From IMG/VR virus record IMGVR_UViG_2531839524_000004: DNA of 64,000 nt. One strand, 5' to 3'. The first letter of the stretch is position 1. Each line of letters starts with the position of its first letter. This document shows positions 3,528 through 52,140 of the stretch, in pieces. Below the pieces are notes generated by a model, which ran no database searches, was not told where the DNA came from, and saw only the letters and a program-made list of their open reading frames with translations. A program made the translations under genes and the position numbers. The DNA is from a virus (taxonomy: Duplodnaviria; Heunggongvirae; Uroviricota; Caudoviricetes).

Positions 3528-4317
3528 TAAAGCAATCCCTGAGCTTGGCTCTGATGTTATGCAGCAAATCTATCTCTGCGCCATAAATCGCTACCCTAAT
3601 GAAGCGTGTGGCTTTCTGGTGAGAACTAATGGCGACAAATATCGCTTTATGGAAGCGCGAAATGTTTCGGAGAACCCGCAGAACACTTTTGTAATGCACG
3701 TTGACGACATTATAGCGGCAGAGGATGCAGGTGACGTAATCGCAATCTGGCATTCACATACTGATGAATCAGCAGAAGCATCTGATGCCGATCGTGCAGG
3801 CTGTGAAGCGACGGAAGTTCCGTGGATGATTCTGGCTATTCGCAAGAATGTTGAGGGAGATGCCCCTTTCCATTTTAGCGAGATGAATGTGATCACACCT
3901 GATGGTTTCGAAATGCCATACCTGGGTAGACCGTATGTATTTGGCGTATTCGATTGCTGGATGTTGTGTCGGGACTATTTGAAGCGTGAGTTTAACGTCG
4001 AGCTTAACCCGAACGCACACCTGCATATTCCATCGTGGTACACCGGCGATAACGACATTCTCGACCAGAACTACCGAAACGAAGGGTTGGTACGGCTTGC
4101 GCCTGGAACAGAGCCTCAACGTGGGGACGTCTTCTTTATTCAATACGGGAAAATGCCAGATCACTGCGCGGTTTATATCGGCGATGGAATGATTCTTCAT
4201 CACCAGATCGACCGTCTTAGTTGTCGTGCTTATTACGGCGGAATGTATCAGAAACATACGACGCATCACTTGCGTCACAGAGACTTGCTCAAGGGAGATG
4301 AGACGTGTCTGAGTTAG
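3520..4317 (+). CDS. Tail tip assembly protein (lambda gpK-like; JAMM/MPN plus NlpC/P60 domains)
   Basis: 'AIWHSHTDESAEASDADR' is an HxH...D JAMM-like motif; C-terminal 'FDCWMLCRDY' and 'DHCAVYIGDGMILHH' fit an NlpC/P60 Cys/His pair. ORF track starts at 3493; start trimmed to the ATG at 3520. Confidence 0.7.
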   Translation: MGNKAIPELGSDVMQQIYLCAINRYPNEACGFLVRTNGDKYRFMEARNVSENPQNTFVMHVDDIIAAEDAGDVIAIWHSHTDESAEASDADRAGCEATEVPWMILAIRKNVEGDAPFHFSEMNVITPDGFEMPYLGRPYVFGVFDCWMLCRDYLKREFNVELNPNAHLHIPSWYTGDNDILDQNYRNEGLVRLAPGTEPQRGDVFFIQYGKMPDHCAVYIGDGMILHHQIDRLSCRAYYGGMYQKHTTHHLRHRDLLKGDETCLS

Positions 4318-15456: not shown

Positions 15457-15855
15457 ATGCATACTGCACTTAACGCATCTCGTTCTATTCAGACGATAAG
15501 AGACTGTACCAAGATGATCGCATCGGTTCCGTTGCGACATTGGAATGACTCGCTCCAAATTCGTGAAATGAACAAACCGGGTATGCTTAAGGATCAGCGT
15601 TTCATCGTTAACCTTAAAAGTGACGTTGAAGAAGGCAAGTTTACCATCAAATTGTTTGCAGAAATGATGGTGCTCAACAATCGGTTACGTTTTCTTGTTA
15701 AGCCAGAAAAACAGTTTCCCGATGTTGTGCGTTGTGAACAGGATGCTTTCTATGAGATTGAAAGCAAAATAGCTAAATTTATCAAAGATAAATACCGCGT
15801 AGATGTTAAAATAGCGAAACTGGATTCATCTACGGATATGCGGCTTGCTAACTAA
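15457..15855 (+). CDS. Hypothetical protein (first gene of a two-gene cargo operon)
   Basis: 132-aa ORF with its own upstream intergenic region; no motif recognised. Confidence 0.5.
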   Translation: MHTALNASRSIQTIRDCTKMIASVPLRHWNDSLQIREMNKPGMLKDQRFIVNLKSDVEEGKFTIKLFAEMMVLNNRLRFLVKPEKQFPDVVRCEQDAFYEIESKIAKFIKDKYRVDVKIAKLDSSTDMRLAN

Positions 15856-16632
15856 ATGTCACCATCATTCATAGCAGAGTATTCAAAAGTACTGTCTGGT
15901 TTCCCTGAATGTGAAGCAAGAGAGAAAATCAGAGTTGGCTACATGGTTAACTCTGATTTTTCTGTTTTACGGCTCACAGAGTGGTCCTTGATCGGGTCTA
16001 ATTATGATTACTGTTTGACAGTGTCATTTGTAGGCGACCCTGATGCAGATTGGCTTCAAGAACATGCAATGGATCTTGACGAGCAGGGGTATTCAGAAGC
16101 AGAGATAGTTCATAGTGTTCGTGAATTAGTTGGTGATGAGCAAGAAGATGATGACGGCATTCAGATCGCCAGGTTCGTCTACAAACGATTCCAGTTTCGC
16201 TCACAAAAAGGCTCTCATCTTGGGGTCCAGATTAAAGGGGCATTTGTAACCCCTTCAAAGGAACAAAAGGGACTTGCTAGAAGAGTTTACAATTTCCTTC
16301 TCAATTGGCATGACCATGTGGTATGTGATGACCATCAGACGGTTTACGGTGCCAGAATTTGGGCGGTCGGTATGCTTCTGGTCGGGCGTGTCCAAATCTA
16401 TGACAATTTAAACAAAGAATTTATAGATGTCCTTGTTGAAGGTGGTATTGGGCAGAATGGCGTCAAACCGTGGGACGCGCTGCTATTGAGCAGCGAGGCC
16501 CAGTTACGTCACTGGAACCCTATGGCCGTCAGCATAGACCCATCTAGTCAGATTCTCGCCATCATCTCCAAAGAAGACCGTCACATTGAAGTGGGCGTTA
16601 CAACTTTTGACGCCAGGTCTACCAACCATTAA
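15856..16632 (+). CDS. Hypothetical protein (second gene of the cargo operon)
   Basis: 258-aa ORF abutting the previous gene; followed by a rho-independent terminator; acidic stretch 'GDEQEDDDG'. Confidence 0.5.
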   Translation: MSPSFIAEYSKVLSGFPECEAREKIRVGYMVNSDFSVLRLTEWSLIGSNYDYCLTVSFVGDPDADWLQEHAMDLDEQGYSEAEIVHSVRELVGDEQEDDDGIQIARFVYKRFQFRSQKGSHLGVQIKGAFVTPSKEQKGLARRVYNFLLNWHDHVVCDDHQTVYGARIWAVGMLLVGRVQIYDNLNKEFIDVLVEGGIGQNGVKPWDALLLSSEAQLRHWNPMAVSIDPSSQILAIISKEDRHIEVGVTTFDARSTNH

Positions 16633-16787: not shown

Positions 16788-17456
16788 ATGACCAAGATCT
16801 TTGTGGTTGGCGGCACAAAGGGCGGGCCTGGCAAATCCACCGTTGCCCAGCAAATTGCCGTTTGCCTGAAAGTCAAAAAGAAGAAGAAGGTTTATATCAC
16901 TGATATAGATATTCAGCGCACGACAACAAGCTGGTGTGAAGACCGTCGACAGAACGAAGACCTTGAGCTGATTCCTTTTGCATACGTTCAGGATGACATC
17001 ATTAAGCACCTAAAATCGCTTCAGGGTAGAGCTGAGTTTGTAGTGGTAGATGCTGGTGGCTTTGACTCCGAAATTCAGCGACAAGCGATGCTGATGGCCG
17101 ACGTTATCATTATCCCGCTGCGTCCTAAGCGTCGTGATTTGAAATCTTTACGTGACATCGATCCTATTATCGACAATGTTCGTAATGTAAACGATAAAGT
17201 GAAGGTCCGCGCGGTCATGAACCAGTGCCCGGCTTTGCCATCACAAGTGTCTCGCATTTTGGCGGCTAAAGAGATTGTCGAGACGTTTGGCATCGAGTCT
17301 GCGCCAGTCAATTTATATAACCGCAACGTCTATGATGATGCGGAAGAGTCTGGTCGTTCTATCTTTGAAATGACCGGTAGCGAGCGCGACAAAAAGGCGG
17401 AAGCCGAGTTTGAAGAATTTGTAGATTATCTGTTGAGTCTGGAGGAAGAAGAATAA
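16788..17456 (+). CDS. parA: ParA-family partition ATPase
   Basis: Deviant Walker A 'GGTKGGPGKST' near the N-terminus; 222 aa; followed by a small DNA-binding partner gene. Confidence 0.8.
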   Translation: MTKIFVVGGTKGGPGKSTVAQQIAVCLKVKKKKKVYITDIDIQRTTTSWCEDRRQNEDLELIPFAYVQDDIIKHLKSLQGRAEFVVVDAGGFDSEIQRQAMLMADVIIIPLRPKRRDLKSLRDIDPIIDNVRNVNDKVKVRAVMNQCPALPSQVSRILAAKEIVETFGIESAPVNLYNRNVYDDAEESGRSIFEMTGSERDKKAEAEFEEFVDYLLSLEEEE

Positions 17457-17815
17457 TGTCCATGAAAATGGGTGACCTAGCAAAGCGCAAAGAGCCTGAT
17501 GCACCGGCTAAGAACACAACTCCTTTGCGCCAACCAGTCAGACCACAGGGACGCCCGACTCGTGGCAAAGAGAAAATTAAAAGCCGCACAATGTCACTGG
17601 AGGACGAATACTTCGAACTGCTGGAGATGATGAAGTTCATCCCTCGCTTCGAGAAGTTCACTCGTTCTGACGTGATTCGAGCAGCCATTTTCCATCTGGC
17701 AGAGAAGTCACCGCAGGAAATCGAGGACATCGTGAAATTGAATGAGGCGATCACCGCTGCCGATGTCACGATGCGTACCGATGAAATCAAACGAGAGTTG
17801 ATGAAGAAAGGTTAA
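17456..17815 (+). CDS. Partition DNA-binding protein (ParG/ParB-like, putative)
   Basis: 119 aa with a basic, Pro-rich N-terminal tail and a compact C-terminal domain; start overlaps the parA stop. Confidence 0.5.
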   Translation: MSMKMGDLAKRKEPDAPAKNTTPLRQPVRPQGRPTRGKEKIKSRTMSLEDEYFELLEMMKFIPRFEKFTRSDVIRAAIFHLAEKSPQEIEDIVKLNEAITAADVTMRTDEIKRELMKKG

Positions 17816-19702: not shown

Positions 19703-21043
19703 ATGACCGAACTTTGCCATACAGGACGCGGGCTGTCCGAAGAGTTTGATGAAGATTTCCAGAACAGACTGACGGCATATTTTTGTCGTGATCACGAGTT
19801 TCTTACTCGTGCGGGAGATCTGGTTGTGCCTAGCCAATTTGCCAATGCGGCCAATGCCATATTGGTTAATATGGTTTCGGGCTATTACCGTATGTACAAG
19901 AGCGCGCCCTCTTCATCTGCAATTCTGGATATGCTTAAGCGTGCGAAACGCGATAAGACTATCCGTGAGGAACTATTCGCCGATGTTGTTGCTGCGTTTA
20001 AGCGCATTCTTGCAGAAAAATTGTCCGATACCTCGTACATGGTTGACCAGGTATCAACCTTCGCAAAAAGTGTAGCGTTTGATGATGCTCTGATTAAGGC
20101 TGCTGAACTGAAAGAGAAAGGCGACTTTCACGGGGCGATGGCAATCATGGCCAAGGTTCAGCAGATTGGATCGAACGAAGCGACCGGAATCTATGACTAC
20201 TACACCTCCGCAAGTGAGCGATTGAAAGCGCGTGAATATGAGGCTTCAGAGGAGTATGTACCAAACAGTATTACAACTGGACTCCCTCTTCTCGATAGGT
20301 TGCTGTACCAAAAAGGCTGGGCAAAGCGCGAAATGGTGCTCTTCATGGGGTTCGCTAAATCCGGTAAATCGACCGCAATGGGTGAGTTTTCCATAAACGC
20401 AACACTTGCTGGCTACAATGTTCTGTATCTCTCGCTGGAGGTTCACACCACCATTTTATCCGACCGTTTTGATGCAAGATTGTCGGAGACGGAAATGTCC
20501 AAGTTGGTGGAACGGCGCGATGAAGTTCATCGCAAGTTGGCAGAGTTGGGAGCTACGAAGGGTATTGGTAGTTTGTGGGTTGTTGAGCGTCCGTCAGGAA
20601 GTATGTCACCGGCAGATCTGGACCGTATGCTTAACAGCATGAAAGCCAACGGCATGGTGCCTGACATGGTTGTTGTCGACTACGCAGATTTGATGCGTGC
20701 CAGTTATGACCTTCGTGATGATCGCGCCAACATTCGTAGTATCTACACCGATTTACGTGCTCTTTATGACAAGCATAACGTTGCTGGGATCACGGCATCG
20801 CAGACAAACCGTGAAGGTGGCGCGTCAGAAGTTGCCACAATGATGCACGCTGCCGACAACATCGAAAAAGTACGTATTGCTGACCTGGTAATAACGATCA
20901 ACAAAACCGAAGAAGAAGAAGCGAAAGGAGAGGCTCGTCTCTACTTTGCTGGTTCACGTAACCAGCAGGGAGGGATCAGCATTCGCGTTAAACAAAACCT
21001 CGAACAAATGCGCTTCATTGAGCGAATCTTAGACGTTACCTAA
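19703..21043 (+). CDS. DnaB-like replicative helicase
   Basis: Walker A 'GFAKSGKST', Walker B-like 'VVVDYADLM', and 'SQTNREG' motif. Confidence 0.8.
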   Translation: MTELCHTGRGLSEEFDEDFQNRLTAYFCRDHEFLTRAGDLVVPSQFANAANAILVNMVSGYYRMYKSAPSSSAILDMLKRAKRDKTIREELFADVVAAFKRILAEKLSDTSYMVDQVSTFAKSVAFDDALIKAAELKEKGDFHGAMAIMAKVQQIGSNEATGIYDYYTSASERLKAREYEASEEYVPNSITTGLPLLDRLLYQKGWAKREMVLFMGFAKSGKSTAMGEFSINATLAGYNVLYLSLEVHTTILSDRFDARLSETEMSKLVERRDEVHRKLAELGATKGIGSLWVVERPSGSMSPADLDRMLNSMKANGMVPDMVVVDYADLMRASYDLRDDRANIRSIYTDLRALYDKHNVAGITASQTNREGGASEVATMMHAADNIEKVRIADLVITINKTEEEEAKGEARLYFAGSRNQQGGISIRVKQNLEQMRFIERILDVT

Positions 21044-21052
21044 AAAATAAGC

Positions 21053-22306
21053 GTGGAGAACACCTCCACGCTTGATTCATTGGTGAAACAACTTTTCTTT
21101 TGCCAAACCACAAAAGAAAAACACATGAGCCTTTATGTTATATCAACATTTAGGTTGGTCACAATATTGCCTGTTAAAAGTGGAATTATCGTGAGCGAGC
21201 TGAAAGAGCTAATTACCGAATTAGATTTTGAACAATGGTTGGATACTGAAGGTATCGTTTATCGACGTGGAGGCGTGAGTACTCGCGGTCGTGAAGTGAA
21301 TATCAAGGAGTGTCCGGTATGTGGCAGCTCCAACTGGAAGGTATATTTCAATCTGACCAGTGGCGTCGGTAAATGCTTCGCTGGTGATCATCCCGAAGAG
21401 ATTCAGTTCAATAAGCTGGTCTTCCTCAAGCACTACAGCGGCAAATCACGACGACAGTTCGAGGAATATGTGCAGAACGCCCTTCTTTCCCAGGGGTGGG
21501 CACCAAAGAAAGAAGAGCTAGTGCTTGCAAGCACAGTCGAGTTAGAGGGGCCAGTTGCACTCCCTCGTCATTACGAGCTTCCTATAGATGGTCGTCTTCC
21601 AGACTATCTGGTTGAACGAAACATATCGCCTGAAATGGCAAAGTATTTTGACCTACGATACTGCGTCGAAGGCAAGCACGCCTATGTAGATCCGTATACA
21701 GATCAGGTTAAAGGACAGATATTCGATATGCGAATACTGATACCGGTTTACGATCTGGATGGGGTAATGAAGACATTTCAGGGACGAGACATTACCGGTA
21801 CAGCAGAACGTCGCTACCTCTTTCCTATGCAGCTTCCAGCTTCAGGTAAGTTTCTCTACAACGGCCATAATGCAGTCGGCAAACAGACGGTAGTTGTCTG
21901 TGAGGGGGCGTTCGATGTTATGGGGGTCAAACGAGCTATTTTTGACGAAGAAACATTACGTGATTACGTGGAACCAATAGGAACGTTCGGGATGCATCTA
22001 TCTGGCAACACCACTCAGGATGCAGAAGATCAGCTGGGCGCGTTCCTGACGCTCAAGGCGCGTGGATTACGTAATGTGATCATGATGTGGGATAGTGAAA
22101 AGCAAGCTATACGCAACACTATGGCCGCAGCTAGGCGACTCACAAGTATTGGCCTTAATGTCAAAGTTGCGTGTTTGGGCGAGGAAGGACTCGACCCCGG
22201 CGATGCGACACCGGGGCAGATTATCAAAGCCTACTATTGCGCAAAACCTTATTCACGACAGCTTGAACTCTTAAGCAAGGTGAAAGGCATTGCAGCACTA
22301 GTTTGA
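21053..22306 (+). CDS. DNA primase (zinc-binding plus TOPRIM)
   Basis: 'CPVCGSSNWKVYFNLTSGVGKCFAGDH' zinc-ribbon-like element and 'VVVCEGAFDVMG' TOPRIM acidic motif; true start may be downstream of 21053. Confidence 0.7.
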   Translation: MENTSTLDSLVKQLFFCQTTKEKHMSLYVISTFRLVTILPVKSGIIVSELKELITELDFEQWLDTEGIVYRRGGVSTRGREVNIKECPVCGSSNWKVYFNLTSGVGKCFAGDHPEEIQFNKLVFLKHYSGKSRRQFEEYVQNALLSQGWAPKKEELVLASTVELEGPVALPRHYELPIDGRLPDYLVERNISPEMAKYFDLRYCVEGKHAYVDPYTDQVKGQIFDMRILIPVYDLDGVMKTFQGRDITGTAERRYLFPMQLPASGKFLYNGHNAVGKQTVVVCEGAFDVMGVKRAIFDEETLRDYVEPIGTFGMHLSGNTTQDAEDQLGAFLTLKARGLRNVIMMWDSEKQAIRNTMAAARRLTSIGLNVKVACLGEEGLDPGDATPGQIIKAYYCAKPYSRQLELLSKVKGIAALV

Positions 22307-23335
22307 ACCAGTATTAGTCACGTAAACATTGACCGAAAATGATTTAACTTCTGTGTTGAAGTTGTCAGTCATTACCGCGAGGTAGGCATTCTTGGTATCT
22401 CTGAATTGCTTCAGGATGATTTGAACGTTATCGGTGCAAACAAACGAGGTAGCCAGATTGCCTCCTTTCTCTGAAAAATCCTTTAGGAAAGTGCAGTCAA
22501 TTTTGCCATCATTAGCGGTGAAGGTGGCATCATCACCCTGCCAGGTAAATGTTGCGTTAACGCCTTTATCAATGGATTTAGCAATAAGTCGCTGAGTGGA
22601 GGATTTTGCTTTAGATCTTGCTGCTGATGGTTGGTATTTACCGCTTTCTTTTAGTTCTGCAATGTAATCACAGCCATTTTTATCTTCTTTATCGCAAGCT
22701 GCCTGATAAAGCTCAGCTGCTTTTTTATAATCTTTTTTAACCCCTTCACCATACTCATACATAATGCCAAGATTCGCCAATGCAGATGCACTGCCTAGTT
22801 CGATTCCTTTTTTATAATACTCTATTGCCTTTTTGTAGCTTTTTGGCACGCCTGCGCCAACATAATATAACTGTCCTAGATATGACGCAGATTCAGGGTC
22901 GCCAGCCTCTACTGCAAGTTTGTGATATTTCAGGGAAAGTTTTTGGTCTTTCTTACCCGCAAGTCCTTTATGATAAATAACACCCAGATTGTGATAAGAG
23001 TTGCCTCCAGCTGCATCACCAGCTTTCTTAAAGAGTTCCTCTGCCTTTTTGAAATTTTTATCAACCCCATACCCAAGGGCATACATTATACCTAGAGCAT
23101 TAAACGCTTCTTTGTTCCCCTTAGAAGTCGCCAGTTCAAGCCATTTTCTGGCTTCATCGTAGTTTTTTTCGACACCATGAATACCTTTCATATAGTCGAT
23201 ACCTAAAGCACTCTGTGACTCAACGTCGCCTGCTTTTGCCGCATCGATCAGCTTTTGTATTTCATAGGCATGTGCACTCCCCGAAACAAGTAATAGCGAC
23301 AACATAAAGAAAGATATTGGTTTGAAATGTTTCAT
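22298..23335 (-). CDS. Secreted Sel1-repeat (SLR) protein
   Basis: Signal peptide 'MKHFKPISFFMLSLLLVSGSAHA'; multiple ~36-aa repeats of the form 'A...LG.MY..G.GV.KNY.KA..' typical of Sel1; opposite strand to the flanking replication genes. Confidence 0.75.
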   Translation of the reverse strand: MKHFKPISFFMLSLLLVSGSAHAYEIQKLIDAAKAGDVESQSALGIDYMKGIHGVEKNYDEARKWLELATSKGNKEAFNALGIMYALGYGVDKNFKKAEELFKKAGDAAGGNSYHNLGVIYHKGLAGKKDQKLSLKYHKLAVEAGDPESASYLGQLYYVGAGVPKSYKKAIEYYKKGIELGSASALANLGIMYEYGEGVKKDYKKAAELYQAACDKEDKNGCDYIAELKESGKYQPSAARSKAKSSTQRLIAKSIDKGVNATFTWQGDDATFTANDGKIDCTFLKDFSEKGGNLATSFVCTDNVQIILKQFRDTKNAYLAVMTDNFNTEVKSFSVNVYVTNTGSN

Positions 23336-23516
23336 TTTTGGATTTTCACAAGATGGTTAGGTGGTTGTGGCTACTCGGTGTAAGGCTTTGTAATCACCGA
23401 TTGGTAAGGTTACTTCAATTTAGCTTAACTGTCAGCATACCCAATCGCCGAAAAGATAAGTAGATGATTACTTATTAGTGTGTAAGAATACTGCCATCTG
23501 TTAGCTAGGAGTTGGT

Positions 23517-24299
23517 ATGAAAGAAGAAATTAAGAGATTAGCCTGCAACATCATTGATAAAACTGGTTTAGAAATCAGCGAGAGCAATCGGCTAGACATC
23601 ATTGAAAAAGCCGTCAATACGGCAATGGATCATATCGCCACTCGTTTGGTCGAGATCCCGCTACCGGGGCTACCTTATCTGAAGGTTAAGTTGCGCGTAT
23701 GGGGCGAACCTGCACATGCACGACGTTCTGCATTAGTTGTTTTTGTACGCAAAGAAAACTTACGAACTCTAAAAGTGCAGGTTGGGGCGTGGTTTGATGG
23801 CAGAGTCATCTATACAGATACCATTATCTGTCCTCCAGGTGACGAACATATTGAAGCCGTCATTCGAGAATCAATTCGAGCTATGCGCAGTTTAGCTTTG
23901 CTGGAAGACAAGCAAAACTTTGAAGATTACTTGCTGTCGGTAAAAGCTGAACCAACATTGTCTCTGAAAGCCGATTTCGTCACCCCGACAAATCTGTTGG
24001 AGGTTTTGATTAATAAAGGGGCTAATGATGCTGTAAACCTAATCAGGGAAAGCGAATATTCGACTCTTTGCGACATGTGCAAAAGCCAGTTGGATCTGGT
24101 GCATATCGTTATTGATGCTGGGAAGGCATGTGATGGCGTAATGGCTGAATTTGCTGGGAAGATGGTCAGGATTGCTAACGAATTACCGATGATAGAGCAA
24201 GAGGCCAAATCATACGCCACCAATCATGTCACAGAGCTTCTTGCCCCCTATCGCTTAGAAAGCGATCAGCGCAAGATGATTAGCTGGGGAAGTTGGTAA
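23517..24299 (+). CDS. Hypothetical protein
   Basis: 260-aa ORF; no motif recognised. Confidence 0.5.
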   Translation: MKEEIKRLACNIIDKTGLEISESNRLDIIEKAVNTAMDHIATRLVEIPLPGLPYLKVKLRVWGEPAHARRSALVVFVRKENLRTLKVQVGAWFDGRVIYTDTIICPPGDEHIEAVIRESIRAMRSLALLEDKQNFEDYLLSVKAEPTLSLKADFVTPTNLLEVLINKGANDAVNLIRESEYSTLCDMCKSQLDLVHIVIDAGKACDGVMAEFAGKMVRIANELPMIEQEAKSYATNHVTELLAPYRLESDQRKMISWGSW

Positions 24300-24366
24300 G
24301 CTCTCTGTGTGTCGTTTTTTACGCAAATAATGATAGGTAAGCACAAGATTATTTCTGGCGGTAATT

Positions 24367-24837
24367 GTGAAAGCTGATTTGTCAAAAATCCCTTCTATTT
24401 CAGGAAATAACGGTTATTCACTTCGTTGTGAGGAAGTAAAGATAAACGGTGAGTCGGCATATTGCAGCTATTCCGTTTGCCAGCACACCATTCTTGCCTT
24501 CAAAGAAAACCGTCTTCCTCGAACTTCTTTCCAGTCGTGCGCAACCGCTATCAAAGCAGGCAAATGCAAGGCGTTAAAAATGATGGTTGAAGAGATTCGT
24601 AAAGGAGAATCTCTGTATTTCGAAGATATGACCGCGCTCATTAAGGAGGTTGAAGAACGGAATAAACAAGCCAGAACTATAAAACGAAAACGTGACAGTG
24701 TAACGATTAATAGCATGGTTAAGAAGAGCACCACATCACAAACAGCGATCACTGACGTGTATGCGGCGTTGCTTGAAGAAACAACAAAAGAAACACATGA
24801 GCAAATCGATCAACATATGGAGGCAAAACAACAATGA
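24367..24837 (+). CDS. Hypothetical protein
   Basis: 156-aa ORF with several Cys near the N-terminus; stop overlaps the ligase start. Confidence 0.45.
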   Translation: MKADLSKIPSISGNNGYSLRCEEVKINGESAYCSYSVCQHTILAFKENRLPRTSFQSCATAIKAGKCKALKMMVEEIRKGESLYFEDMTALIKEVEERNKQARTIKRKRDSVTINSMVKKSTTSQTAITDVYAALLEETTKETHEQIDQHMEAKQQ

Positions 24838-26156
24838 AAAAGTTGATCGCACTTAAGCATAAGCTGGACGAAATGAAAGCTATGGGAACCAATGCAAAAA
24901 AAGAGGCATTGGCCAACATGGATGACTTCGAGCAAAGCATGGTTTCATTGATGCTCAACCCTTTCATCCGTTTTGGGGTAAAGAAATACAAAGTGGCAGA
25001 GCCGCTTAGTGAGTCCGTCCCAAGTGACGAAAAAGCCATTGATATACTGAATAAGCTGGCCTCTCGCGAGCTGACGGGGAACGCAGCAATAGCTGCTGTT
25101 GAGTCTATCGTGGCGTCAATGTGCGCCGATGGGCAGGACGTGTTCCGTCGTTTCCTCTTAAAAGATCCGAAAGCTGGCGTTGGGATTAGCCTATGTAACA
25201 AGGTTTTTGAAAATCCCATTCCGAAATTCGAGGTGCAGCTGGCGTCACCGTATAAAGAAAAAGGCGACAAATACCCCTTCAAGCCAAATCCTAAAGCCAA
25301 ATGGCCGATGATTGGCAGTCTTAAGCTCGATGGTTTGCGAGTAATTTGCGAGGTTATTGTTGACGAGGAAGAGGTTAACTTCCTTTCTCGTACTGGTAAT
25401 CCAATCACGTCTCTCGATCACCTAAAGCCAGCCATGCTCGAATTAGGCAAACTTTCAGGCCACAAACACATCTTCTTCGATGGTGAAGGAACTGCCGGTT
25501 CATTTAACCAGTCCGTATCTGCATTGCGCAAAAAGAACGTGCAGGCAATTGGCGCTATTTATCATGTTTTCGACTTCTTCCTACCGGAATGGCGAGCACA
25601 GGCTAAATCCAAAGAGTATGCAAAGACAGGTATGAAGCTGAAAGAGCGCCTGGCTATGCTGGTGGCGTTGTTCAAAAACGATCGCAGTGAAGGCTACACA
25701 CAAGACATTCACCTGCATCCGTTCTATATCATCCATAGCCACGAAGACTTCATCGAACGCTTCATGAAACGCCTGGACGATAACGAAGAAGGGGAGATGG
25801 GCAAAGATCCGAACTCTGTTTACGAGTTTAAACGTACCCGCAGCTGGTGGAAGTTAAAAGACGAAGATTCAGAAGATGGTGAAATTATCGACTTTGAGCC
25901 GGGCGACCCGGACTCTGGTTTTGCCAACACACTTGGAAAAATTGTTATTCGTCTTGAAAACGGCGTCATCGTTCGTGCGAGCGGTATTAAGCATAAATAT
26001 CTGGACGAGATCTGGAACAACAAAGAGAAGTACCGTGGTCGTATTGTTGAGGTTCATTGTCACGAGAAAACACCGGATGGCAGCTTACGCCACCCCCGAC
26101 TGAAATGGCCGCGTTGCTTACGCGATACAGAAGATCGAATCGGAGATAAAGAATGA
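24834..26156 (+). CDS. ATP-dependent DNA ligase
   Basis: Adenylation motif KxDG in 'MIGSLKLDGLRV'; 440 aa. Confidence 0.7.
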   Translation: MKKLIALKHKLDEMKAMGTNAKKEALANMDDFEQSMVSLMLNPFIRFGVKKYKVAEPLSESVPSDEKAIDILNKLASRELTGNAAIAAVESIVASMCADGQDVFRRFLLKDPKAGVGISLCNKVFENPIPKFEVQLASPYKEKGDKYPFKPNPKAKWPMIGSLKLDGLRVICEVIVDEEEVNFLSRTGNPITSLDHLKPAMLELGKLSGHKHIFFDGEGTAGSFNQSVSALRKKNVQAIGAIYHVFDFFLPEWRAQAKSKEYAKTGMKLKERLAMLVALFKNDRSEGYTQDIHLHPFYIIHSHEDFIERFMKRLDDNEEGEMGKDPNSVYEFKRTRSWWKLKDEDSEDGEIIDFEPGDPDSGFANTLGKIVIRLENGVIVRASGIKHKYLDEIWNNKEKYRGRIVEVHCHEKTPDGSLRHPRLKWPRCLRDTEDRIGDKE

Positions 26157-35871: not shown

Positions 35872-36075
35872 GTGCGTAAAGGATGTTTCGGCTCTCTTAT
35901 CGCTGCTTCTGAAACTGGTAAGGCTTGTCTGGTATGTCCAGACAAGCCCGATTGTCACCAATCAGCAAAAGAAGTTGCGATTTCGATGTATGGGAAGTTC
36001 GTAGGCTTCCCCAATGACAAAATCAAAAAAACCAGAAAGGTAAAAACACATGAAGGCTCTAATGGTTCGAACTGA
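35872..36075 (+). CDS. Small Cys-rich protein (putative zinc ribbon)
   Basis: 'CFGS...CLVCPDKPDC'; 67 aa; overlaps the polymerase start. Confidence 0.35.
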   Translation: MRKGCFGSLIAASETGKACLVCPDKPDCHQSAKEVAISMYGKFVGFPNDKIKKTRKVKTHEGSNGSN

Positions 36076-39000
36076 CTTCTCTCTTGGGGAGTCGGCTCTA
36101 AAAGCAGAAAACGCGGGGAAGATTGCCAGAGAAGCTGGCTACACCGCTGTAATTTCGGCAGATAGCATGAATATTGCGAGTGTTATTCCACTACAACGTG
36201 CCGCTGGTGACGACATGGCGGTTATTTGTGGTGTGAAACTAAACATCGTTGATGATCCCACATACGAGCACCGGGCTAAACTTGCTAAAGAGTCTATGAG
36301 ATGTATGGAATCATTAGAGCGTGGGCGGAACTACTCGTTTACCGCTCTAATTAAAAATGAGCAAGGATATCGCGACATCTGCGAACTAATGACGGTGGCC
36401 AACACACGAGAACAATTCTACTTTGTACCGCGTCTCTCGCTCGATCAGCTGGTTTCTACATATGCCAAAGGCAACATCATCCTGCTTACTTCCGACATCG
36501 GTAGCGTGTTCCAACGCAACGATTTTGCAAAAATCATAAGCTCACTGATTACAGCGGGTGGAAAAGACAACTTCTATAGCGTGGTTTATCCGCACCCTAC
36601 CCCATTCTACGACCAGATTAACGTCCGAGCGATGAAAGTAGCTAGCGCACTGAAAATAGAGCCAGTGGCGTTCTATCCCGCTTATTACGAATCGATCGAC
36701 GATGCAGACATTAAAGACATTGCGCACATGGTTACGAACAACATCAAAATAGCCCAGCCGCATCGTCTGCGTATCCCCCACCAGCGAGATAACGCCGTCA
36801 ATGGTCGCCGCCATCTCCTTGAGGCGCTTAAAGCCTTCTCCGTTCGCATGGATGTGCCGGTAACAGCTGCAATGGCCTCAACAACGCAGGACACCATTAT
36901 CGAAGCCTGCACATGGCGCTGGCATGAATTGCCACCAGCACTTCCTAAGATGGCAGACGACGAACCTGCAACACTGATGAAACTTGCTGTTGCAGGGCTG
37001 CGTAAGCGTCTTACCACAAAAGAGTTTGGCTATATACCACCGGCTTCTGAGAACAGGGTTTATGTTGAACGACTTAAGTACGAAATGGACACGCTGACTC
37101 GCCTGGGATTCTGTGGTTACTTCCTGATGGTGCGCGATCTGATGAATCATAGTCGTGAAACTGGCATTCCCGTTGGGCCTGGTCGTGGTTCCTCTGCCGG
37201 TTCTCTGGTGGCGTGGTGCATAGGCATAACCAACGTCGACCCAATCCGTCACGGTCTTCTGTTTGAACGTTTCATCAACCCTGAGCGTCTCGACTTGCCG
37301 GATGCGGATTTGGACTTCAGCCAGGCACGTCGCCATGAGGTGATCGAGTATCTGAATGAACGCTACGGCGAAGATTACGTTGCAGGCATTCCGAACTTCA
37401 CCTACCTGGGCGCCGCCTCTGCACTACGTGACACTGCTCGTATTTATGGTGTGGAGTCCGCAGATATGGCGGTATCAAAAGAGCTGAAGAACGTCGAGGA
37501 TGATAGCCTTCCATTGGAGGAGCTGCGCGAACAACTGGCAAGTCTCGACAAATACGCGACAAAATACCCTGATGCATTCAATGCAGCCTGCAAGTTACAA
37601 AGCCTTATGCGTGGCTTTGGTAGGCATGCGGCTGGGATGATCGTAGCAGGTGTTCCTCTGACTGAACGTACACCGGTTGAACGTCGTGGTGACGCGCGTT
37701 GTATCGCATTTGACAAGCGTTACTGCGAGGCTATGGGCCTAATTAAGCTGGACGTACTTGGCCTAGCAACTCTCGATTTGCTCGATAGTGCAAAACGCTA
37801 TATCAAAGAGAACACGGGTGAAGATATCAACCTTGATGCCATTTCTCTTGAAGATCGCAAGGTGCTGGATGGTTTTGCTGCTGGGTACACTCAAGGTGTT
37901 TTCCAGCTTGAATCAGGCCCAATGCGCAAGCTGCTTAAGGACTTAGGTAGTGGCATTGAGCCAATGAGCTTTAAAACGGTCGTTGCTACGACTGCGCTCT
38001 TCCGACCGGGGCCAATTCAGTCAGGCATGTTGGATGACTATGTTTCTGTCGCCAAAGGTTTTATGACGCCAGAGTCACTACACCCCGTTCTTGATGAGCT
38101 TACCGCAGAAACCAACGGTGTGATTCTCTATCAGGAGCAGACGATGAACGCGACCCGATTGCTTGCCGGCTTCACAATGGCTGAAGCTGACGGCGTTCGT
38201 AAAGCGATCGGCAAAAAAGATATGGAAAAAATGAAGAGCATGGGCGAGAAGTTCATCGTTCAGGCTCAAGCTGGCTGGATAGACGTTGAGCTGGAAGATG
38301 GCACTACACAGCGCATTCACCGTGCGGAACATTTTAAATGCGAAGACGGAACTCTGAAAACTGTCGAAGAGGCACTTGAGCACGGCGCAAAACTACCTAT
38401 AAACGCAGTACGCGTGACAGCGTCACACCCAGGGCTATCAGAGATGAAAGCGAAGGAGATCTGGACCGCATTCGAAAAAAATGGTGCCTACCAGTTCAAC
38501 AAATCACACTCTGTTGCTTACTCCTTAATCAGTTATCAATCTATGTGGTTGAAAACTCATTATCCCGCAGAGTTTTTCGCTGCTGCTCTTACTATTCTTG
38601 GTGAAGATAAACACCAGGGGCTGGTTAAAGATGCGCTGACCTATGGCATTCGCGTATTGCCACCAGACGTTAATGTGTCATCTAACCGAATAGAGATCCG
38701 CACGCTTGAAGATGGCAGCCAGGTGCTGTTCGCGCCTTTCTCTGCTGTGAAGGGGTGTTCAGAGAATGGCTGCCAAGCCATCATGAGAGCGCGTGAAAAA
38801 GTTGGAGGTAAATTCGAGTCACTGGCGCAATTCGAAGAAGCTGTCGAGAAACGTGCCTGTAATAGTCGAGTACGCGAATCACTGCAAAAAGTAGGGGCGT
38901 TTGCATCCATTGAGCCTGGTAGTCTGCCAGCAACTGATCCAGAGCGTCTCCGCGACCAAGCAGAATTGATGGGAAACCTTGTCATAGACGCAGTTAAAGC

Positions 39001-39568
39001 CTCACGTCCGTTTGAAATGAACCCCAAACGATCGGCTGAAATTAACGTGCTCATGACACGGATGGCGGCTGAAATGGGTTTAGGTGATGAACTAATCCGC
39101 CCCAGCATTGGTATTAAGCCGAAAATCATGATCATTCTGGACAATGCGAACGGCAATGATGCTCGAACCGGTTACTTTATGGAGAACGGATACGACGATT
39201 TTAAGGCCAAGTTGCTGACGGCCGGAGATTTGCGTATGGGCGATCTCTATGTCACAGGCGTTTGCAAGAAGGTTAAAGACAAAGAAAAAGACTACACCAA
39301 AGACGAGATCGGCCAGTTCACCGACTTTATGCGTGAAGAGATCAATCTGGTGCGTCCGACCTATGTTCTGACGTGTGGTAGTCGGGCGACGTCGCTCTTC
39401 AACAACAAGAGCAAACCATCCGACCTGGTTGGACGCAAAGAGTATCTGCCAGAGCTGGATGTGACCGTTTTCTACGGCTTTAACCCGAATATTTTGTACT
39501 TTCGTCCAGAGGAAGGCGAGAAGCTGGAAGCAATTCTGGCAGAGGTAGCGGAGACTATTAGCAAATGA
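36050..39568 (+). CDS. dnaE: DNA polymerase III alpha-like replicative polymerase (DnaE family)
   Basis: 'GPGRGSSAGSLVAWCIGITNVDP...FERFINPER...DLPDADLDF' and 'FNKSHSVAYSLISYQSMWLKTHYPAEF' are hallmark DnaE motifs; N-terminal PHP-like region lacks the usual His residues. Confidence 0.85.
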   Translation: MKALMVRTDFSLGESALKAENAGKIAREAGYTAVISADSMNIASVIPLQRAAGDDMAVICGVKLNIVDDPTYEHRAKLAKESMRCMESLERGRNYSFTALIKNEQGYRDICELMTVANTREQFYFVPRLSLDQLVSTYAKGNIILLTSDIGSVFQRNDFAKIISSLITAGGKDNFYSVVYPHPTPFYDQINVRAMKVASALKIEPVAFYPAYYESIDDADIKDIAHMVTNNIKIAQPHRLRIPHQRDNAVNGRRHLLEALKAFSVRMDVPVTAAMASTTQDTIIEACTWRWHELPPALPKMADDEPATLMKLAVAGLRKRLTTKEFGYIPPASENRVYVERLKYEMDTLTRLGFCGYFLMVRDLMNHSRETGIPVGPGRGSSAGSLVAWCIGITNVDPIRHGLLFERFINPERLDLPDADLDFSQARRHEVIEYLNERYGEDYVAGIPNFTYLGAASALRDTARIYGVESADMAVSKELKNVEDDSLPLEELREQLASLDKYATKYPDAFNAACKLQSLMRGFGRHAAGMIVAGVPLTERTPVERRGDARCIAFDKRYCEAMGLIKLDVLGLATLDLLDSAKRYIKENTGEDINLDAISLEDRKVLDGFAAGYTQGVFQLESGPMRKLLKDLGSGIEPMSFKTVVATTALFRPGPIQSGMLDDYVSVAKGFMTPESLHPVLDELTAETNGVILYQEQTMNATRLLAGFTMAEADGVRKAIGKKDMEKMKSMGEKFIVQAQAGWIDVELEDGTTQRIHRAEHFKCEDGTLKTVEEALEHGAKLPINAVRVTASHPGLSEMKAKEIWTAFEKNGAYQFNKSHSVAYSLISYQSMWLKTHYPAEFFAAALTILGEDKHQGLVKDALTYGIRVLPPDVNVSSNRIEIRTLEDGSQVLFAPFSAVKGCSENGCQAIMRAREKVGGKFESLAQFEEAVEKRACNSRVRESLQKVGAFASIEPGSLPATDPERLRDQAELMGNLVIDAVKASRPFEMNPKRSAEINVLMTRMAAEMGLGDELIRPSIGIKPKIMIILDNANGNDARTGYFMENGYDDFKAKLLTAGDLRMGDLYVTGVCKKVKDKEKDYTKDEIGQFTDFMREEINLVRPTYVLTCGSRATSLFNNKSKPSDLVGRKEYLPELDVTVFYGFNPNILYFRPEEGEKLEAILAEVAETISK

Positions 39569-48957: not shown

Positions 48958-49288
48958 GGCCATCCCATTCGCGCTGTTGTTCCTTTCTTCGATCGTTGTG
49001 GCCGACACCACTGTTTATCAGTGTGAAATGTCTGTAGCCGACGTTAAGAATGGCGCTCTTACCGACGTCATAAAAGCACCATATGGAGCGATGGTCGTAG
49101 ACAGCGGCGACCAGTTCTATGTTGTGCGTGACGATCGAGTGTTGTCATCCCCATATCTCACAAATCGTAATGGCAAATTAACCGGCGTCGGAGAAGACCA
49201 CTTCGTATACAACAAATACAAGGGCTTCTATGGCGTTCACGCTTCTCAGCAAAGCTACCTTTTCGATGACTGCAAGGAGGTTGGGTAA
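48953..49288 (+). CDS. Small secreted protein
   Basis: Signal peptide 'MKAIPFALLFLSSIVVA'; 111 aa. Confidence 0.45.
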   Translation: MKAIPFALLFLSSIVVADTTVYQCEMSVADVKNGALTDVIKAPYGAMVVDSGDQFYVVRDDRVLSSPYLTNRNGKLTGVGEDHFVYNKYKGFYGVHASQQSYLFDDCKEVG

Positions 49289-49500
49289 TGGCATTAACAC
49301 TGGCAGGTCTGGAAATCGAGAAAACAAGCGGCTACTGGCGTGCTAAGGGTTTCAAGCAGCCTGGCATTCTTGAGCGTCTGGAACGTGAAGATGGGTATAT
49401 CGTCCACCAGCGGCGTGAATGGCGTATGTACGATCCAGAAACAGGAAAACTGACTACAAAAGCCGGAACACTTTGGGGTCTGTTGAAGAAAATACACTAA
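49288..49500 (+). CDS. Hypothetical small protein
   Basis: 70-aa ORF overlapping the previous stop. Confidence 0.35.
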   Translation: MALTLAGLEIEKTSGYWRAKGFKQPGILERLEREDGYIVHQRREWRMYDPETGKLTTKAGTLWGLLKKIH

Positions 49501-49546
49501 ATGCAAACTGACTGCGGCTCGTTCCGCAGTCATATTTCATAGTCGT

Positions 49547-50081
49547 CACCGCTGACAGCATACACAATCAACTACCGCTGATAGCATATCGAGAGTCTAT
49601 CTCACCGCTCACAGCATACTTTACTCGATTTTTTACCGCTGACAGCATACTTAAGAAATTGCATGAATAATGTGTCCCAGTATGGGTATAACCAGAACAA
49701 AATTACCGCTGGCAGCATACGAATGTCTGACATATACCATTAATTACCGCTGATAGCATATCCAAACAAAAATTCCTCAATAAAACACCGCTGACAGCAT
49801 ACGTTCTATCAGGGAGTAGCAGGCAATAAATGCCTTTCACTACAAGCAATCAGCGCAATAGCAATAGAATGTTAGTGAGCGCAAACCTATATGGAATGCA
49901 CTCTTCGAGGTTAGTAACCACTGGGGAGGTATGACAGAGCATTGAGTGGTGATAGATGATTTACCGCTCACAGCATACGTTCATCTCACTATACCGCTGG
50001 TAGCATATCTTTAACCGTTCACAGCATACTTTTCAGAAAAATAGCCGCTGATAGCATACATTTCACCGCTGACAGCATATC
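49547..50081. repeat. Array of 12 iterons (17-19 bp, consensus (T/C)ACCGCTGACAGCATAC) downstream of repA
   Basis: Copies start near 49547, 49573, 49603, 49634, 49704, 49745, 49786, 49961, 49992, 50013, 50043, 50064; spacing is irregular and copies carry point variants. Confidence 0.85.
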
Positions 50082-51294
50082 AAAGCAGTTTGAGACTATT
50101 GGAAAGGATCTCAATCATCTTGATATTTTCAGGCGTCAAATTCTGCGAAAGTTCGGTTATCTTGTTGATAATGTTCTGTTTGGCATCAATTTCCCCAGCT
50201 TTCTCATCTGGTTTTTTGGGTTCGATGTCTTCAGGTTTTGGCGGTGCGACTTTGAGTTTTGGATTGCGGCTGTGAATCTGGATATAGATCGACCGCCCAC
50301 GCTTAATCTCGCTGTATTCGAGATAGCCCAAATCTTGGAGAGCTTTTAAGCCGTTACGTATAGTCTGATTCTGCGAGCTGACATTCCTGCTACTCAAATT
50401 GAGTCGCGCACGCAATCGAGCAAGCGATACCGGCGCAGGCTTGGTTGGAAGACTTTCGATGAAGGTGTACAGAGCCTGTGCTGTTTCTTTGCGTGGTAGC
50501 TTATTGATAACCTTTAACTGCAAAAGAACCTTATGGTCAAAGCGATATAGTTCGGCCAGCTTCGGTTCTGCATAGAACACCACCGTATCTTTCTGCTCGT
50601 TGTAGTCCACGCTATTGATGAGGTGCACCATCAGAAGCGAGATCTTGTTAGAGCCGTCGACGTTCTTTTCTTCATACGTTCTCTGGAAAGACAGAGTTGT
50701 ACGCATGATCTTCAAAAGACTGTTTGTAAGCCGGTCGCGGAGTGTTTTGCGGATCTGTGACGATGGATAGCCACAAAACTTAGCAAATTTCGTGATGCTT
50801 AACTCGACACGACCGTTAGGTTCGCCGTATTCTGCCAGCGAACGCACAACGCCCACCCACGTTTTGAAATCATGATCCATGTCGAGACGAGGACCGGTTA
50901 TCTTGATATCGGAATAGCCTTCAGAACGGGCTACTTCGAGCTGGACAAGCTCCTTTGAAGCATCGATCTCATTTGGCTTGTTACGTTTACTGTATTTTGT
51001 TCCCTTAAGCGTGGGGACGAACAACCCCAGTCGCATCAACGCAATTGGTTGGACTGTATTGTTGCTATTAGGGACAAGTTCCCCTGTGTACAATTCAAGG
51101 GAACCTTCTTCAAAGTTGTCGATGTTATCTTCTACTTCTTTGTTATTTTTACCTTTTTTATTTTTTGTGGACATGTGGACACCTTTGTCATTCAACCGCT
51201 GACAGCATACTTGATTTGCCGCTGACAGAATACCAAAAACAGTTGGCAGCATACGGTGAACCGCTGACAGACTATCAATTACCGCTGACAGCAT
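50080..51294 (-). CDS. repA: Replication initiator protein (iteron-binding RepA-type)
   Basis: 404-aa protein whose gene is bracketed by iterons on both sides, overlapping its start and stop; a P1 RepA-like arrangement. Confidence 0.7.
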   Translation of the reverse strand: MLSAVIDSLSAVHRMLPTVFGILSAANQVCCQRLNDKGVHMSTKNKKGKNNKEVEDNIDNFEEGSLELYTGELVPNSNNTVQPIALMRLGLFVPTLKGTKYSKRNKPNEIDASKELVQLEVARSEGYSDIKITGPRLDMDHDFKTWVGVVRSLAEYGEPNGRVELSITKFAKFCGYPSSQIRKTLRDRLTNSLLKIMRTTLSFQRTYEEKNVDGSNKISLLMVHLINSVDYNEQKDTVVFYAEPKLAELYRFDHKVLLQLKVINKLPRKETAQALYTFIESLPTKPAPVSLARLRARLNLSSRNVSSQNQTIRNGLKALQDLGYLEYSEIKRGRSIYIQIHSRNPKLKVAPPKPEDIEPKKPDEKAGEIDAKQNIINKITELSQNLTPENIKMIEILSNSLKLL

Positions 51295-51296
51295 AC
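51194..51296. repeat. Four to five iterons upstream of and overlapping the repA start
   Basis: 'AACCGCTGACAGCATAC' (51194), 'GCCGCTGACAGAATACC' (51218), partial 'TTGGCAGCATAC' (51243), 'AACCGCTGACAGACTATC' (51259), 'TACCGCTGACAGCATAC' (51280). Confidence 0.8.
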
Positions 51297-51299
51297 ATG

Positions 51300-51420
51300 A
51301 ACATGACTTCAGACCAGGCGTGGCGCGGCTTACAGCGATCGGGGATCTTATTTGATCTATATAAGGATCTATCTATGGATCTCTTTATTAGGATCTATCC
51401 TGTGGATATGTGAATAATTA
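51300..51420. promoter_or_regulatory. Putative replication origin core: GATC-rich AT-rich segment with a DnaA-box-like sequence
   Basis: Six GATC sites within ~60 bp (five as (A/G)GGATCT) and 'TGTGGATAT' at 51401-51409 (8/9 match to the DnaA-box complement), adjacent to the upstream iterons. Confidence 0.5.
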
Positions 51421-51495
51421 AAACAGGCATTTACTACCTTCGGCGCACCTGGTGGGTTATCGTTGCCTCGGCTAACAATCACAGAAAAATGACAT

Positions 51496-52140
51496 ATGGA
51501 TCTAAAACGCACGCGCTGGGTTCGTCGTCTTGAAGACGGCTCCTACACTATCGAATCAAATTCCAACCTGAATAAGCAGAAGTTGCTTTGTGACATCTGC
51601 GGTATAGCGGCGAAGTGCCCGATCTACGAAACCAGAATTAAACTTGATAAGGCTGGTGTGAATTTTCATTTAAACAGTTGCATCAGGTACGTTCCATTAC
51701 TCGCATTTCGTAAACCGATCATCGGATTGGATGCTCCCTACTTCAACACACTCCGTTCAGGTGTGACGTGGCGAGATCGTTTATCACCAGACAAGCTGAT
51801 TTGCCTCGTATCCGCAGACACAGGGAAAATCATCCGTTTTGGGAAAGTAGACAAGGTTTACTCAGGCCCAGTAGACGAAATGTTGCGGAAACACAGCCGG
51901 TTTAATCATCTCTGTATGGGTGGTGAGAAAATCGAGAAGGTAGAAGAAGTGATCCGCAAATCCTACGGACACTTTCTGACCAAAGATAGCCTGCTCACCG
52001 CAATCTACATCAGACATGTAAAACGTGAGTTCGACCTCGAATACCACAGCGAAGAAGAGCTTAACCTTGTTGACCCACGTCCAAAAGCTGGCGTCATAAG
52101 CATAAACGCAGCGCGTAAAAAGCCCACTGACGCGCTGTAA
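51496..52140 (+). CDS. Hypothetical protein
   Basis: 214-aa ORF adjacent to the replicon; no motif recognised. Confidence 0.5.
   Translation: MDLKRTRWVRRLEDGSYTIESNSNLNKQKLLCDICGIAAKCPIYETRIKLDKAGVNFHLNSCIRYVPLLAFRKPIIGLDAPYFNTLRSGVTWRDRLSPDKLICLVSADTGKIIRFGKVDKVYSGPVDEMLRKHSRFNHLCMGGEKIEKVEEVIRKSYGHFLTKDSLLTAIYIRHVKREFDLEYHSEEELNLVDPRPKAGVISINAARKKPTDAL

Follow-up and report, generated by a model that had tools for sequence, protein, structure and literature searches.

A probable iteron replicon of the P1 RepA/RepFIB family in a phage-plasmid of the p09EL50/pECOH89 type

Comparison with the replicon of phage P1

Phage-plasmids of the SSU5 supergroup type as IncFIB (PMC7969092; bioRxiv 10.1101/2025.09.12.675607), and for two of them, p09EL50 and pECOH89, the RepA protein had already been reported between 2012 and 2014 (PMC3486847; PMC3999498), that of pECOH89 being 100% identical to the protein of p09EL50 and 48% identical to that of pLF82 (PMC3999498). 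A group from Klebsiella has been published as 'IncpKPHS1', with four iterons downstream of repA and a RepA without a known domain (PMC6735626). Here, we analysed a 64,000-nucleotide stretch of viral DNA (IMG/VR record IMGVR_UViG_2531839524_000004), referred to below as the window, in which a 2-kb region around repA is very probably the plasmid-maintenance (theta) replicon, of the P1 RepA/RepFIB iteron family, of a phage-plasmid of the p09EL50/pECOH89 type. The replicon, its family, and its host element are already known, and a base-level map of the origin of this allele was not found in the literature. The closest characterised relative is phage P1, in which the plasmid origin (oriR) and the lytic origin (oriL) form separate replicons. 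The incC and incA iterons of P1, the autoregulation of its repA, handcuffing, and the dependence of oriR on Dam and SeqA were reportedly described by Abeles, Chattoraj, Austin, and colleagues. The P1 record used as the reference in this study (GenBank AF234172) carries an annotated DnaA site, five Dam sites, five incC iterons with the promoter PrepA, repA, and nine incA iterons that start at the last base of repA. For annotation, the value of the comparison would lie in base-level coordinates for the pECOH89/p09EL50 allele, covering its origin, iterons, and control array (Table 1), a corrected start for repA, the recognition as iterons of repeats labelled attL and attR in a relative, and the bounds of a 2-kb cassette that appears to occur in at least two incompatibility-type alleles.

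A reading of this DNA made from the sequence alone had proposed a P1-like iteron replicon with 12 iterons downstream of repA, four to five upstream iterons overlapping the start of the gene, and, beyond these, a GATC-rich and AT-rich segment with a DnaA-box-like sequence. The iteron core is a 14-nt unit, CCGCTGACAGCATA on the plus strand, present in 12 copies at 49549-50079 and in five at 51196-51295, all 17 in a single orientation; both arrays were thus recovered, the downstream one with exactly the number proposed. Scanning the window for the core with up to three mismatches returned 22 matches against 4.6 +/- 2.0 expected, a number reached by none of 100 shuffles, and every one of the 16 matches with at most two mismatches lies inside the two arrays. 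The 17th iteron (51240-51253) is degenerate, with three mismatches. Read on the repA strand with its flanks, the unit spans ~19 bp, rTATGCTGTCAGCGGTrAw. The incA-type array of 12 control iterons begins directly downstream of repA, and its copies, all direct, are split into groups of five and seven by a 176-bp insert.

RepA scores 37.1 bits (E 5e-9) with the Pfam family PF01051 Rep3_N (WH1), for which the gathering score is 22.4. In tblastn searches, it was 43.5% identical to the RepA of P1 and P7 over amino acids 32-309 (E 2e-64), which bears out the proposed kinship with P1, 48% identical to that of SSU5 and Cyrano (the latter equivalent to pLF82), 85-87% to those of Klebsiella phage-plasmids, 89% to the Cronobacter protein, and 92% to that of Salmonella AnCo3. 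Homologs occur in more than 5000 plasmid records, most of them with less than 60% identity; those sampled, IncFIB-typed records included, were ~50% identical. An alignment of seven RepA sequences retains 87 invariant columns. A C-terminal tail of ~55 amino acids is common to SSU5-type and F-plasmid IncFIB RepA proteins and absent from P1 RepA, and together with the higher identity (~50%) it indicates that this RepA is a nearer relative of RepFIB than of P1 proper. The likeness to IncFIB extends to iterons on both sides of repA and to DnaA boxes with a GATC cluster upstream. However, the IncFIB plasmid pCFSAN060804 has a different iteron, ATAAGCTGTAGTGAG, and control iterons of mixed orientation, and IncFIB replicons of that kind reside on F-like conjugative plasmids, whereas this one lies in a phage genome of which it is apparently the only replicon.

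Two starts can be considered for repA. The longest open reading frame (ORF) covers 50080-51294 and encodes 404 amino acids, its first 40 codons being encoded by iterons, and RefSeq/PGAP accordingly lists RepA proteins of 404-405 amino acids that start at 51294, within the first origin iteron. These additional codons stay open because the iterons have a 21-nt periodicity. Translation probably starts at ATG 51174, giving 364 amino acids: the N-termini of homologs align there, a ribosome-binding site (AAAGGTG) lies 5 nt upstream, phage PhiR41_1 is annotated from the same position, and many public records are rotated to open exactly at it. This ATG lies 21 nt past the last origin iteron, and so the five upstream copies stand, while the overlap with the start of repA that the earlier reading had seen probably does not.

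The homology with P1 extends to the origin DNA. Reverse-complemented, the segment 51165-51440 can be aligned with P1 oriR column for column, with 78% identity over 118 bp; both replicons have tandem DnaA boxes, GATC/AGATCC repeats, a GCCGCGCC spacer, five direct iterons, repA, and a control array in the same order. The DnaA boxes and the first repeat read TTATCCACATTATCCACTGGATAGATCC in P1 and TTATTCACATATCCACAGGATAGATCC in the window, the GC-rich spacer GCCGCGCCACGTCTGG and GCCGCGCCACGCCTGG, respectively, and the origin iterons are spaced at 21, 21, 21, and 22 nt in P1 against 21, 21, 21, and 23 here. The first control iteron abuts the stop codon of repA, as does incA iteron 9 of P1. Since RepA is homologous, the origin aligns with oriR, and the control array begins at the stop codon in both, the resemblance is one of homology at the level of protein and DNA and not an analogy.

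The upstream segment named in the sequence-only reading agrees with this alignment. Six GATC sites fall within the 59 bp of 51337-51395, whereas any other 70-bp stretch of the window holds at most three, and the segment has a GC content of 32%, compared with 46% in the whole window; the AGATCC repeats occupy the Dam-site columns of P1, and the segment is a probable unwinding element under Dam/SeqA control. Next to it, two 8/9 boxes (51401-51417) align with the annotated DnaA site of P1 oriR, TTATCCACATTATCCAC. DnaA-box matches by themselves were not above chance (17 against 15 expected across the window), and these two gain significance only because they align with the annotated P1 site. The GCCGCGCC motif of the spacer is invariant from P1 through all relatives. 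At the other end of the origin, two further DnaA-box-like 9-mers (TGTGGACAT and TGTGGACAC on the plus strand) overlap the start and the ribosome-binding site of repA. The block containing them, AAAGGTrTCCACATG, is kept in five lineages, its Klebsiella and Salmonella version, GTATCCACA, is an 8/9 DnaA box, and it aligns near the repA-proximal TATCCACA of P1; these 9-mers are weak candidates for DnaA sites. With only 21 nt between the last iteron and the ATG, the repA promoter would have to overlap the iterons, and the candidate found there lies no more than 2 nt from the annotated position of PrepA in the alignment, although it is weak, with a poorly conserved -10 element.

Beyond these similarities, the two replicons differ in several respects. 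The iteron of the window, rTATGCTGTCAGCGGT, is not that of P1, GATGTGTGCTGGAGGGAAA, and a different incompatibility specificity would therefore be expected. The 12 control iterons, all direct, compare with nine in P1, of which three are direct and six inverted. RepA has 364 amino acids with its C-terminal tail, whereas P1 RepA has 286, and the leader between the last iteron and the ATG is 21 nt long, against ~56 nt in P1. The array has no P1-type parAB-parS beside it, and the host element is of an SSU5-like siphovirus type, while P1 is a myovirus.

Table 1. Positions of the replicon features and of other genes discussed in the text
Feature	Position	Strand	Remarks
Whole replicon module	49501-51495		intergenic-to-intergenic cassette between the cra-like and the 214-amino-acid genes
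Bidirectional terminator-like hairpin	49509-49532	both	9-bp stem, 6 GC pairs; between the cra-like gene and the iteron array
Distal block, seven copy-control (incA-like) iterons	49549-49801	-	cores at 49549, 49575, 49605, 49636, 49706, 49747, 49788
Conserved ~65-bp core	49866-49930		in the 49802-49962 gap of the control array; two GTTAGTrryyAC boxes ~40 bp apart
Proximal block, five copy-control iterons	49964-50079	-	spacing 21, 30, 21, 30; first adjoins the repA stop codon
repA, predicted iteron-binding replication initiator	50080-51174	-	364 amino acids from ATG 51174
Two abutting weak DnaA-box-like 9-mers	51166-51182	-	ATGTCCACA, GTGTCCACA; 7/9 each; overlap repA start and ribosome-binding site
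Five origin (incC-like) iterons	51196-51295	-	spacing 21, 21, 21, 23; third degenerate
Candidate repA promoter in the iterons	51207-51236	-	TTGGTA, 18 nt, AAGTAT
GC-rich spacer	51297-51336		contains GCCGCGCCACGCCTGG; 56% GC
AT-rich AGATCC-type repeat region	51337-51395		six GATC; in register with the five Dam sites annotated in P1
Two abutting DnaA boxes	51401-51409, 51409-51417	-	ATATCCACA, TTATTCACA; each 8/9 to consensus
cra-like gene	49288-49500	+	left flank of the replicon
214-amino-acid gene	51496-52140	+	right flank of the replicon
parA, short ParA-type partition ATPase	16788-17456	+	222 amino acids; NCBIfam ParA_partition E 1.9e-33, under the equivalog cut-off
119-amino-acid ORF, possible parA partner	17456-17815		directly after parA
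DnaB-like helicase	19703-21043		
Probable DnaG-like primase	21053-22306		scores just under Pfam cut-offs
DnaE	36050-39568		

Relatives and replicon alleles

The 2.1-kb region was 99.7-99.8% identical to ~100 plasmids of E. coli and Shigella with a size of ~109 kb, which include p09EL50 (E. coli O104:H4) and pECOH89 (E. coli H89), and it also matched the inducible phage PhiR41_1 and 'phage CMS-2020a'. The window itself was 99.7% identical to the E. coli phage-plasmids p09EL50 and pECOH89; the E. coli H89 record (NC_023916.1) has 111,741 bp. Near-identity and synteny with p09EL50, pECOH89, and PhiR41_1, and a backbone common to pLF82/Cyrano and SSU5, indicate that the element is a siphovirus-type phage-plasmid of the SSU5 supergroup, of the p09EL50/pECOH89 type. 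Its replicon module was found in 120 of 5426 complete E. coli genomes, at 185 places, all of them on plasmids and none chromosomal, which makes the phage-plasmid a common one (~2% of complete E. coli genomes). Phage-plasmids of this kind carry extended-spectrum beta-lactamase (ESBL) genes.

The absence of the repeats from related genomes had been named at the outset as the finding that would speak against a replicon. They were present in ~120 PLSDB records and in the 120 E. coli genomes, and the same architecture was observed in E. coli, Salmonella AnCo3, Cronobacter sakazakii pCsaC105731a, and Klebsiella pJN2-26 and pIncFIB_DHQP1400954. Each of these has five origin iterons, and the control iterons number 12 in E. 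coli, 11 in Salmonella, 11 in Cronobacter, and eight in Klebsiella. The spacing of the proximal control iterons is 21, 31, 21, and 30 in Salmonella AnCo3, while Cronobacter has six copies spaced at 21, 21, 30, 21, and 30. In pairwise comparisons among the four genera, the iteron cores were 91% identical and the spacers between them 69%; the DnaA boxes reached 89%, the GATC region 84%, and the GC spacer 67%. This profile is the pattern that would be expected of protein-binding sites.

The same data bear on the alternative that the replicon is a decayed relic whose repeats merely hitch-hike on an element maintained from another origin. In favour of a relic, the function of this allele is so far a prediction from its sequence, and PhiR41_1 does without three of the control iterons: it lacks 49564-49634, a 71-bp iteron-to-iteron deletion that leaves nine control iterons instead of 12 and might alter plasmid copy number. 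The positions of the control iterons and the variation in their number (nine in PhiR41_1 against 12) could help in the interpretation of copy-up variants. However, repA is intact and 85-92% conserved over the four genera, the binding-site cores are conserved well above their spacers, and the length of the control array is fixed, a 701-bp query over the whole array (49440-50140) being fully covered, without change in length, in ~120 PLSDB records at 95-99.9% identity. Moreover, MOB-suite lists this replicon as the only one of p09EL50, and degraded derivatives of 62-64 kb in E. albertii, which have lost the virion genes, keep the repA-iteron module and parA. A relic is very improbable in view of these observations.

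The Klebsiella relatives pKPHS1 and pJN2-26 resemble the window closely, with a RepA identity of 85-87%, an identical iteron consensus and origin geometry, and control iterons that are all direct; the difference lies in their number, eight against 12. In the record of Klebsiella phage pJN2-26 (MZ779062), two 20-bp iterons flanking repA (2753-2772 and 4023-4042) are labelled attR and attL. These labels are the ground on which the repeats could be regarded not as iterons but as attachment sites, or else as a CRISPR-like array or transposon ends. Such an origin is hardly credible for 17 copies, and not two, that flank a Rep_3 initiator at a spacing identical to that of P1 and are homologous in position to the experimentally defined RepA-binding iterons of P1; no integrase or transposase gene is adjacent, and the element was never chromosomal (0 of the 185 places in complete E. 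coli genomes). The attL and attR of pJN2-26 are almost certainly misannotated RepA-binding repeats.

Within the SSU5 supergroup, the replicon appears as a unit that has been exchanged on a common backbone. Compared with pLF82/Cyrano in 50-bp bins, the identity was 96-100% as far as the end of the cra-like gene (stop codon at 49500) and returned to 90-100% from 51496, the start of the next gene, whereas bins in the interior, between 49500 and 51499, gave 15-72%, with RepA at 48%. In ~69 PLSDB records, the similarity to the window is confined to the final ~60 bp of the cra-like gene (98-100%), after which the sequences diverge. Because the flanks match the pLF82 type while the interior and RepA diverge, these comparisons indicate that the 2-kb replicon is a swappable allele, with at least two alleles on one E. 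coli phage-plasmid backbone. An assignment of the DnaA/GATC part to the backbone was considered and rejected, as its binned identity (63-72%) places it in the divergent cassette. An analogous pair of replicase alleles, IncY and p0111, has been described in P1-like elements (PMC7969092). The pLF82/Cyrano/SSU5 allele is found at this locus too, bordered by the same genes, and follows the same overall design; nevertheless, its iterons are AACCACTGTAGAGAG-like, its control iterons are mixed in orientation, and in SSU5 (1750-1990, 2140-2400) and Cyrano the origin, with DnaA boxes, GATC repeats, and iterons, is tandemly duplicated. The repA-proximal copy of this SSU5-type duplicated origin has lost most of its GATC sites. 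In Cronobacter pCsaC105731a, two iteron-like sequences of the SSU5 type, ATCCACTATGGGAAG and CTTCCCATAGTGGTTAT, lie inverted to each other at ~2225-2270, between the cra-like gene and the H89-type array, and may be the scar of a replicon replacement.

Both alleles also have in common a ~65-bp core in the control array, kept in Cronobacter, Klebsiella, Salmonella, SSU5, and Cyrano. In SSU5 and Cyrano, where the iterons are unrelated, its orientation with respect to repA is the opposite one. The core had no match in Rfam, and variants of its motif, looked for as a sign of a regulon or of parS-like recurrence, were not enriched elsewhere in the window. A palindromic operator was also considered, box 1 being a perfect 18-bp palindrome in Cyrano; this is not conserved in the window, and the candidate was dropped. 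The core may be bound by a factor from the host or the backbone, or else it may consist of relic iterons. That it binds a phage-backbone or host factor coupling RepA copy control to the state of the phage seems doubtful; if it did, such a factor could relieve handcuffing or, upon induction, switch replication to the DnaE, helicase, and primase of the element itself.

Proposed mode of replication

The anatomy of the region, its homology to P1 in protein and DNA, the conservation across genera, and the exclusive location on plasmids are observations; from them we infer every biochemical step of the following scheme. RepA monomers would bind the five origin iterons, and host DnaA the tandem boxes and possibly the weak boxes at the start of repA. 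RepA and DnaA together would open the AT-rich GATC segment, where the host helicase and replisome would be loaded. Firing would need full Dam methylation of the GATC repeats, and after initiation the hemimethylated repeats would be sequestered by SeqA. RepA would repress its own synthesis, the promoter being located within the origin iterons, and the 12 downstream iterons would titrate RepA and handcuff the origin, resulting in a low copy number and incompatibility. Segregation would be handled by the distant short parA locus. An Rfam search of 49200-51700 (E <= 1) returned no match, and hence there is no sign of an antisense or structured RNA control element in this interval.

Several observations weigh against this scheme. 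The control iterons are all direct, unlike those of P1, and the geometry of looping may therefore differ. Searches of the PDB with the RepA sequence and with a profile of seven RepA members gave no match, and a single-sequence AlphaFold2 model of RepA, with a mean predicted local distance difference test (pLDDT) score of 40, was discarded, so that the two winged-helix domains (WH1-WH2) of the Rep_3 superfamily remain a prediction for RepA. The promoter scan gave no consensus-grade sigma-70 promoter on the repA strand, and the control array is interrupted by the conserved 65-bp core. Finally, genes for DnaE, helicase, and primase are present on the element itself, and the dependence of the plasmid state on RepA and the host replisome is assumed from P1.

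The last point leads to another reading of the same anatomy, namely a functional origin at which RepA recruits the replisome of the element itself, possibly serving lytic replication as well, with the 65-bp core acting as a switch or as an accessory site. The replication genes around the replicon, DnaE, helicase, and primase among them, are present in the window as the sequence-only reading had stated (the primase as a probable one), and this complete phage-type set fits such a reading, as do the RepA tail that P1 lacks and the retention of a non-iteron core in the control arrays of alleles of different specificity. The virion-less E. albertii derivatives of 62-64 kb likewise retain helicase, primase, and both halves of dnaE. 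On the other hand, the same tail is found in the RepA of a conjugative IncFIB/IncFII plasmid, a class presumed to lack a phage replisome. As in P1, DnaA boxes and a Dam-site array have been preserved, a sign of dependence on host factors, and P1 itself keeps its plasmid and lytic replicons apart. Recruitment of the element's own replisome is thus rather improbable, and a plasmid-maintenance replicon served by host factors remains the favoured explanation.

The E. albertii derivatives were also considered as a natural deletion of dnaE; this was rejected, as the gene is merely split by the insertion of an HNH endonuclease gene. Both parts of dnaE being present, nothing can be inferred from these derivatives on the need for it. 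In E. albertii p2014C-4015-1 (20939-25181), the endonuclease gene that splits dnaE is of the NUMOD4 HNH type, and hdeAB and insertion sequence (IS) elements are inserted nearby.

Gene context and partition genes

The gene content of the element was taken from the annotation of p09EL50 and from Pfam scans of the window. In addition to the replication genes listed in Table 1, the window encodes tail proteins, an ATP-dependent ligase, a tyrosine integrase, RecA-like and SbcCD-like proteins, NrdAB, and ThyA.

The parA gene that had been taken as a further sign of low-copy plasmid maintenance is present, with Pfam matches to MipZ, AAA_31, and CbiA, but this gene, the only parA of the element, is of the short type and lies 32 kb from repA, and there is no P1-type parAB beside the incA-like array. 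Directly downstream of the control array, where a large P1-type ParA-ParB operon was looked for, the cra-like gene was found instead. No clear centromere repeats were seen upstream of parA. The ORF adjacent to parA matched aCcr1 of NCBIfam with 21 bits, where the cut-off is 60, and this match was dismissed as noise. Upstream of parA, at 15457-16632, lie two ORFs of 132 and 258 amino acids, the longer one without a Pfam match. At the same position in p09EL50 (94552-95350), a DUF1778/GNAT toxin-antitoxin pair is found, suggesting a variable accessory slot beside the partition genes.

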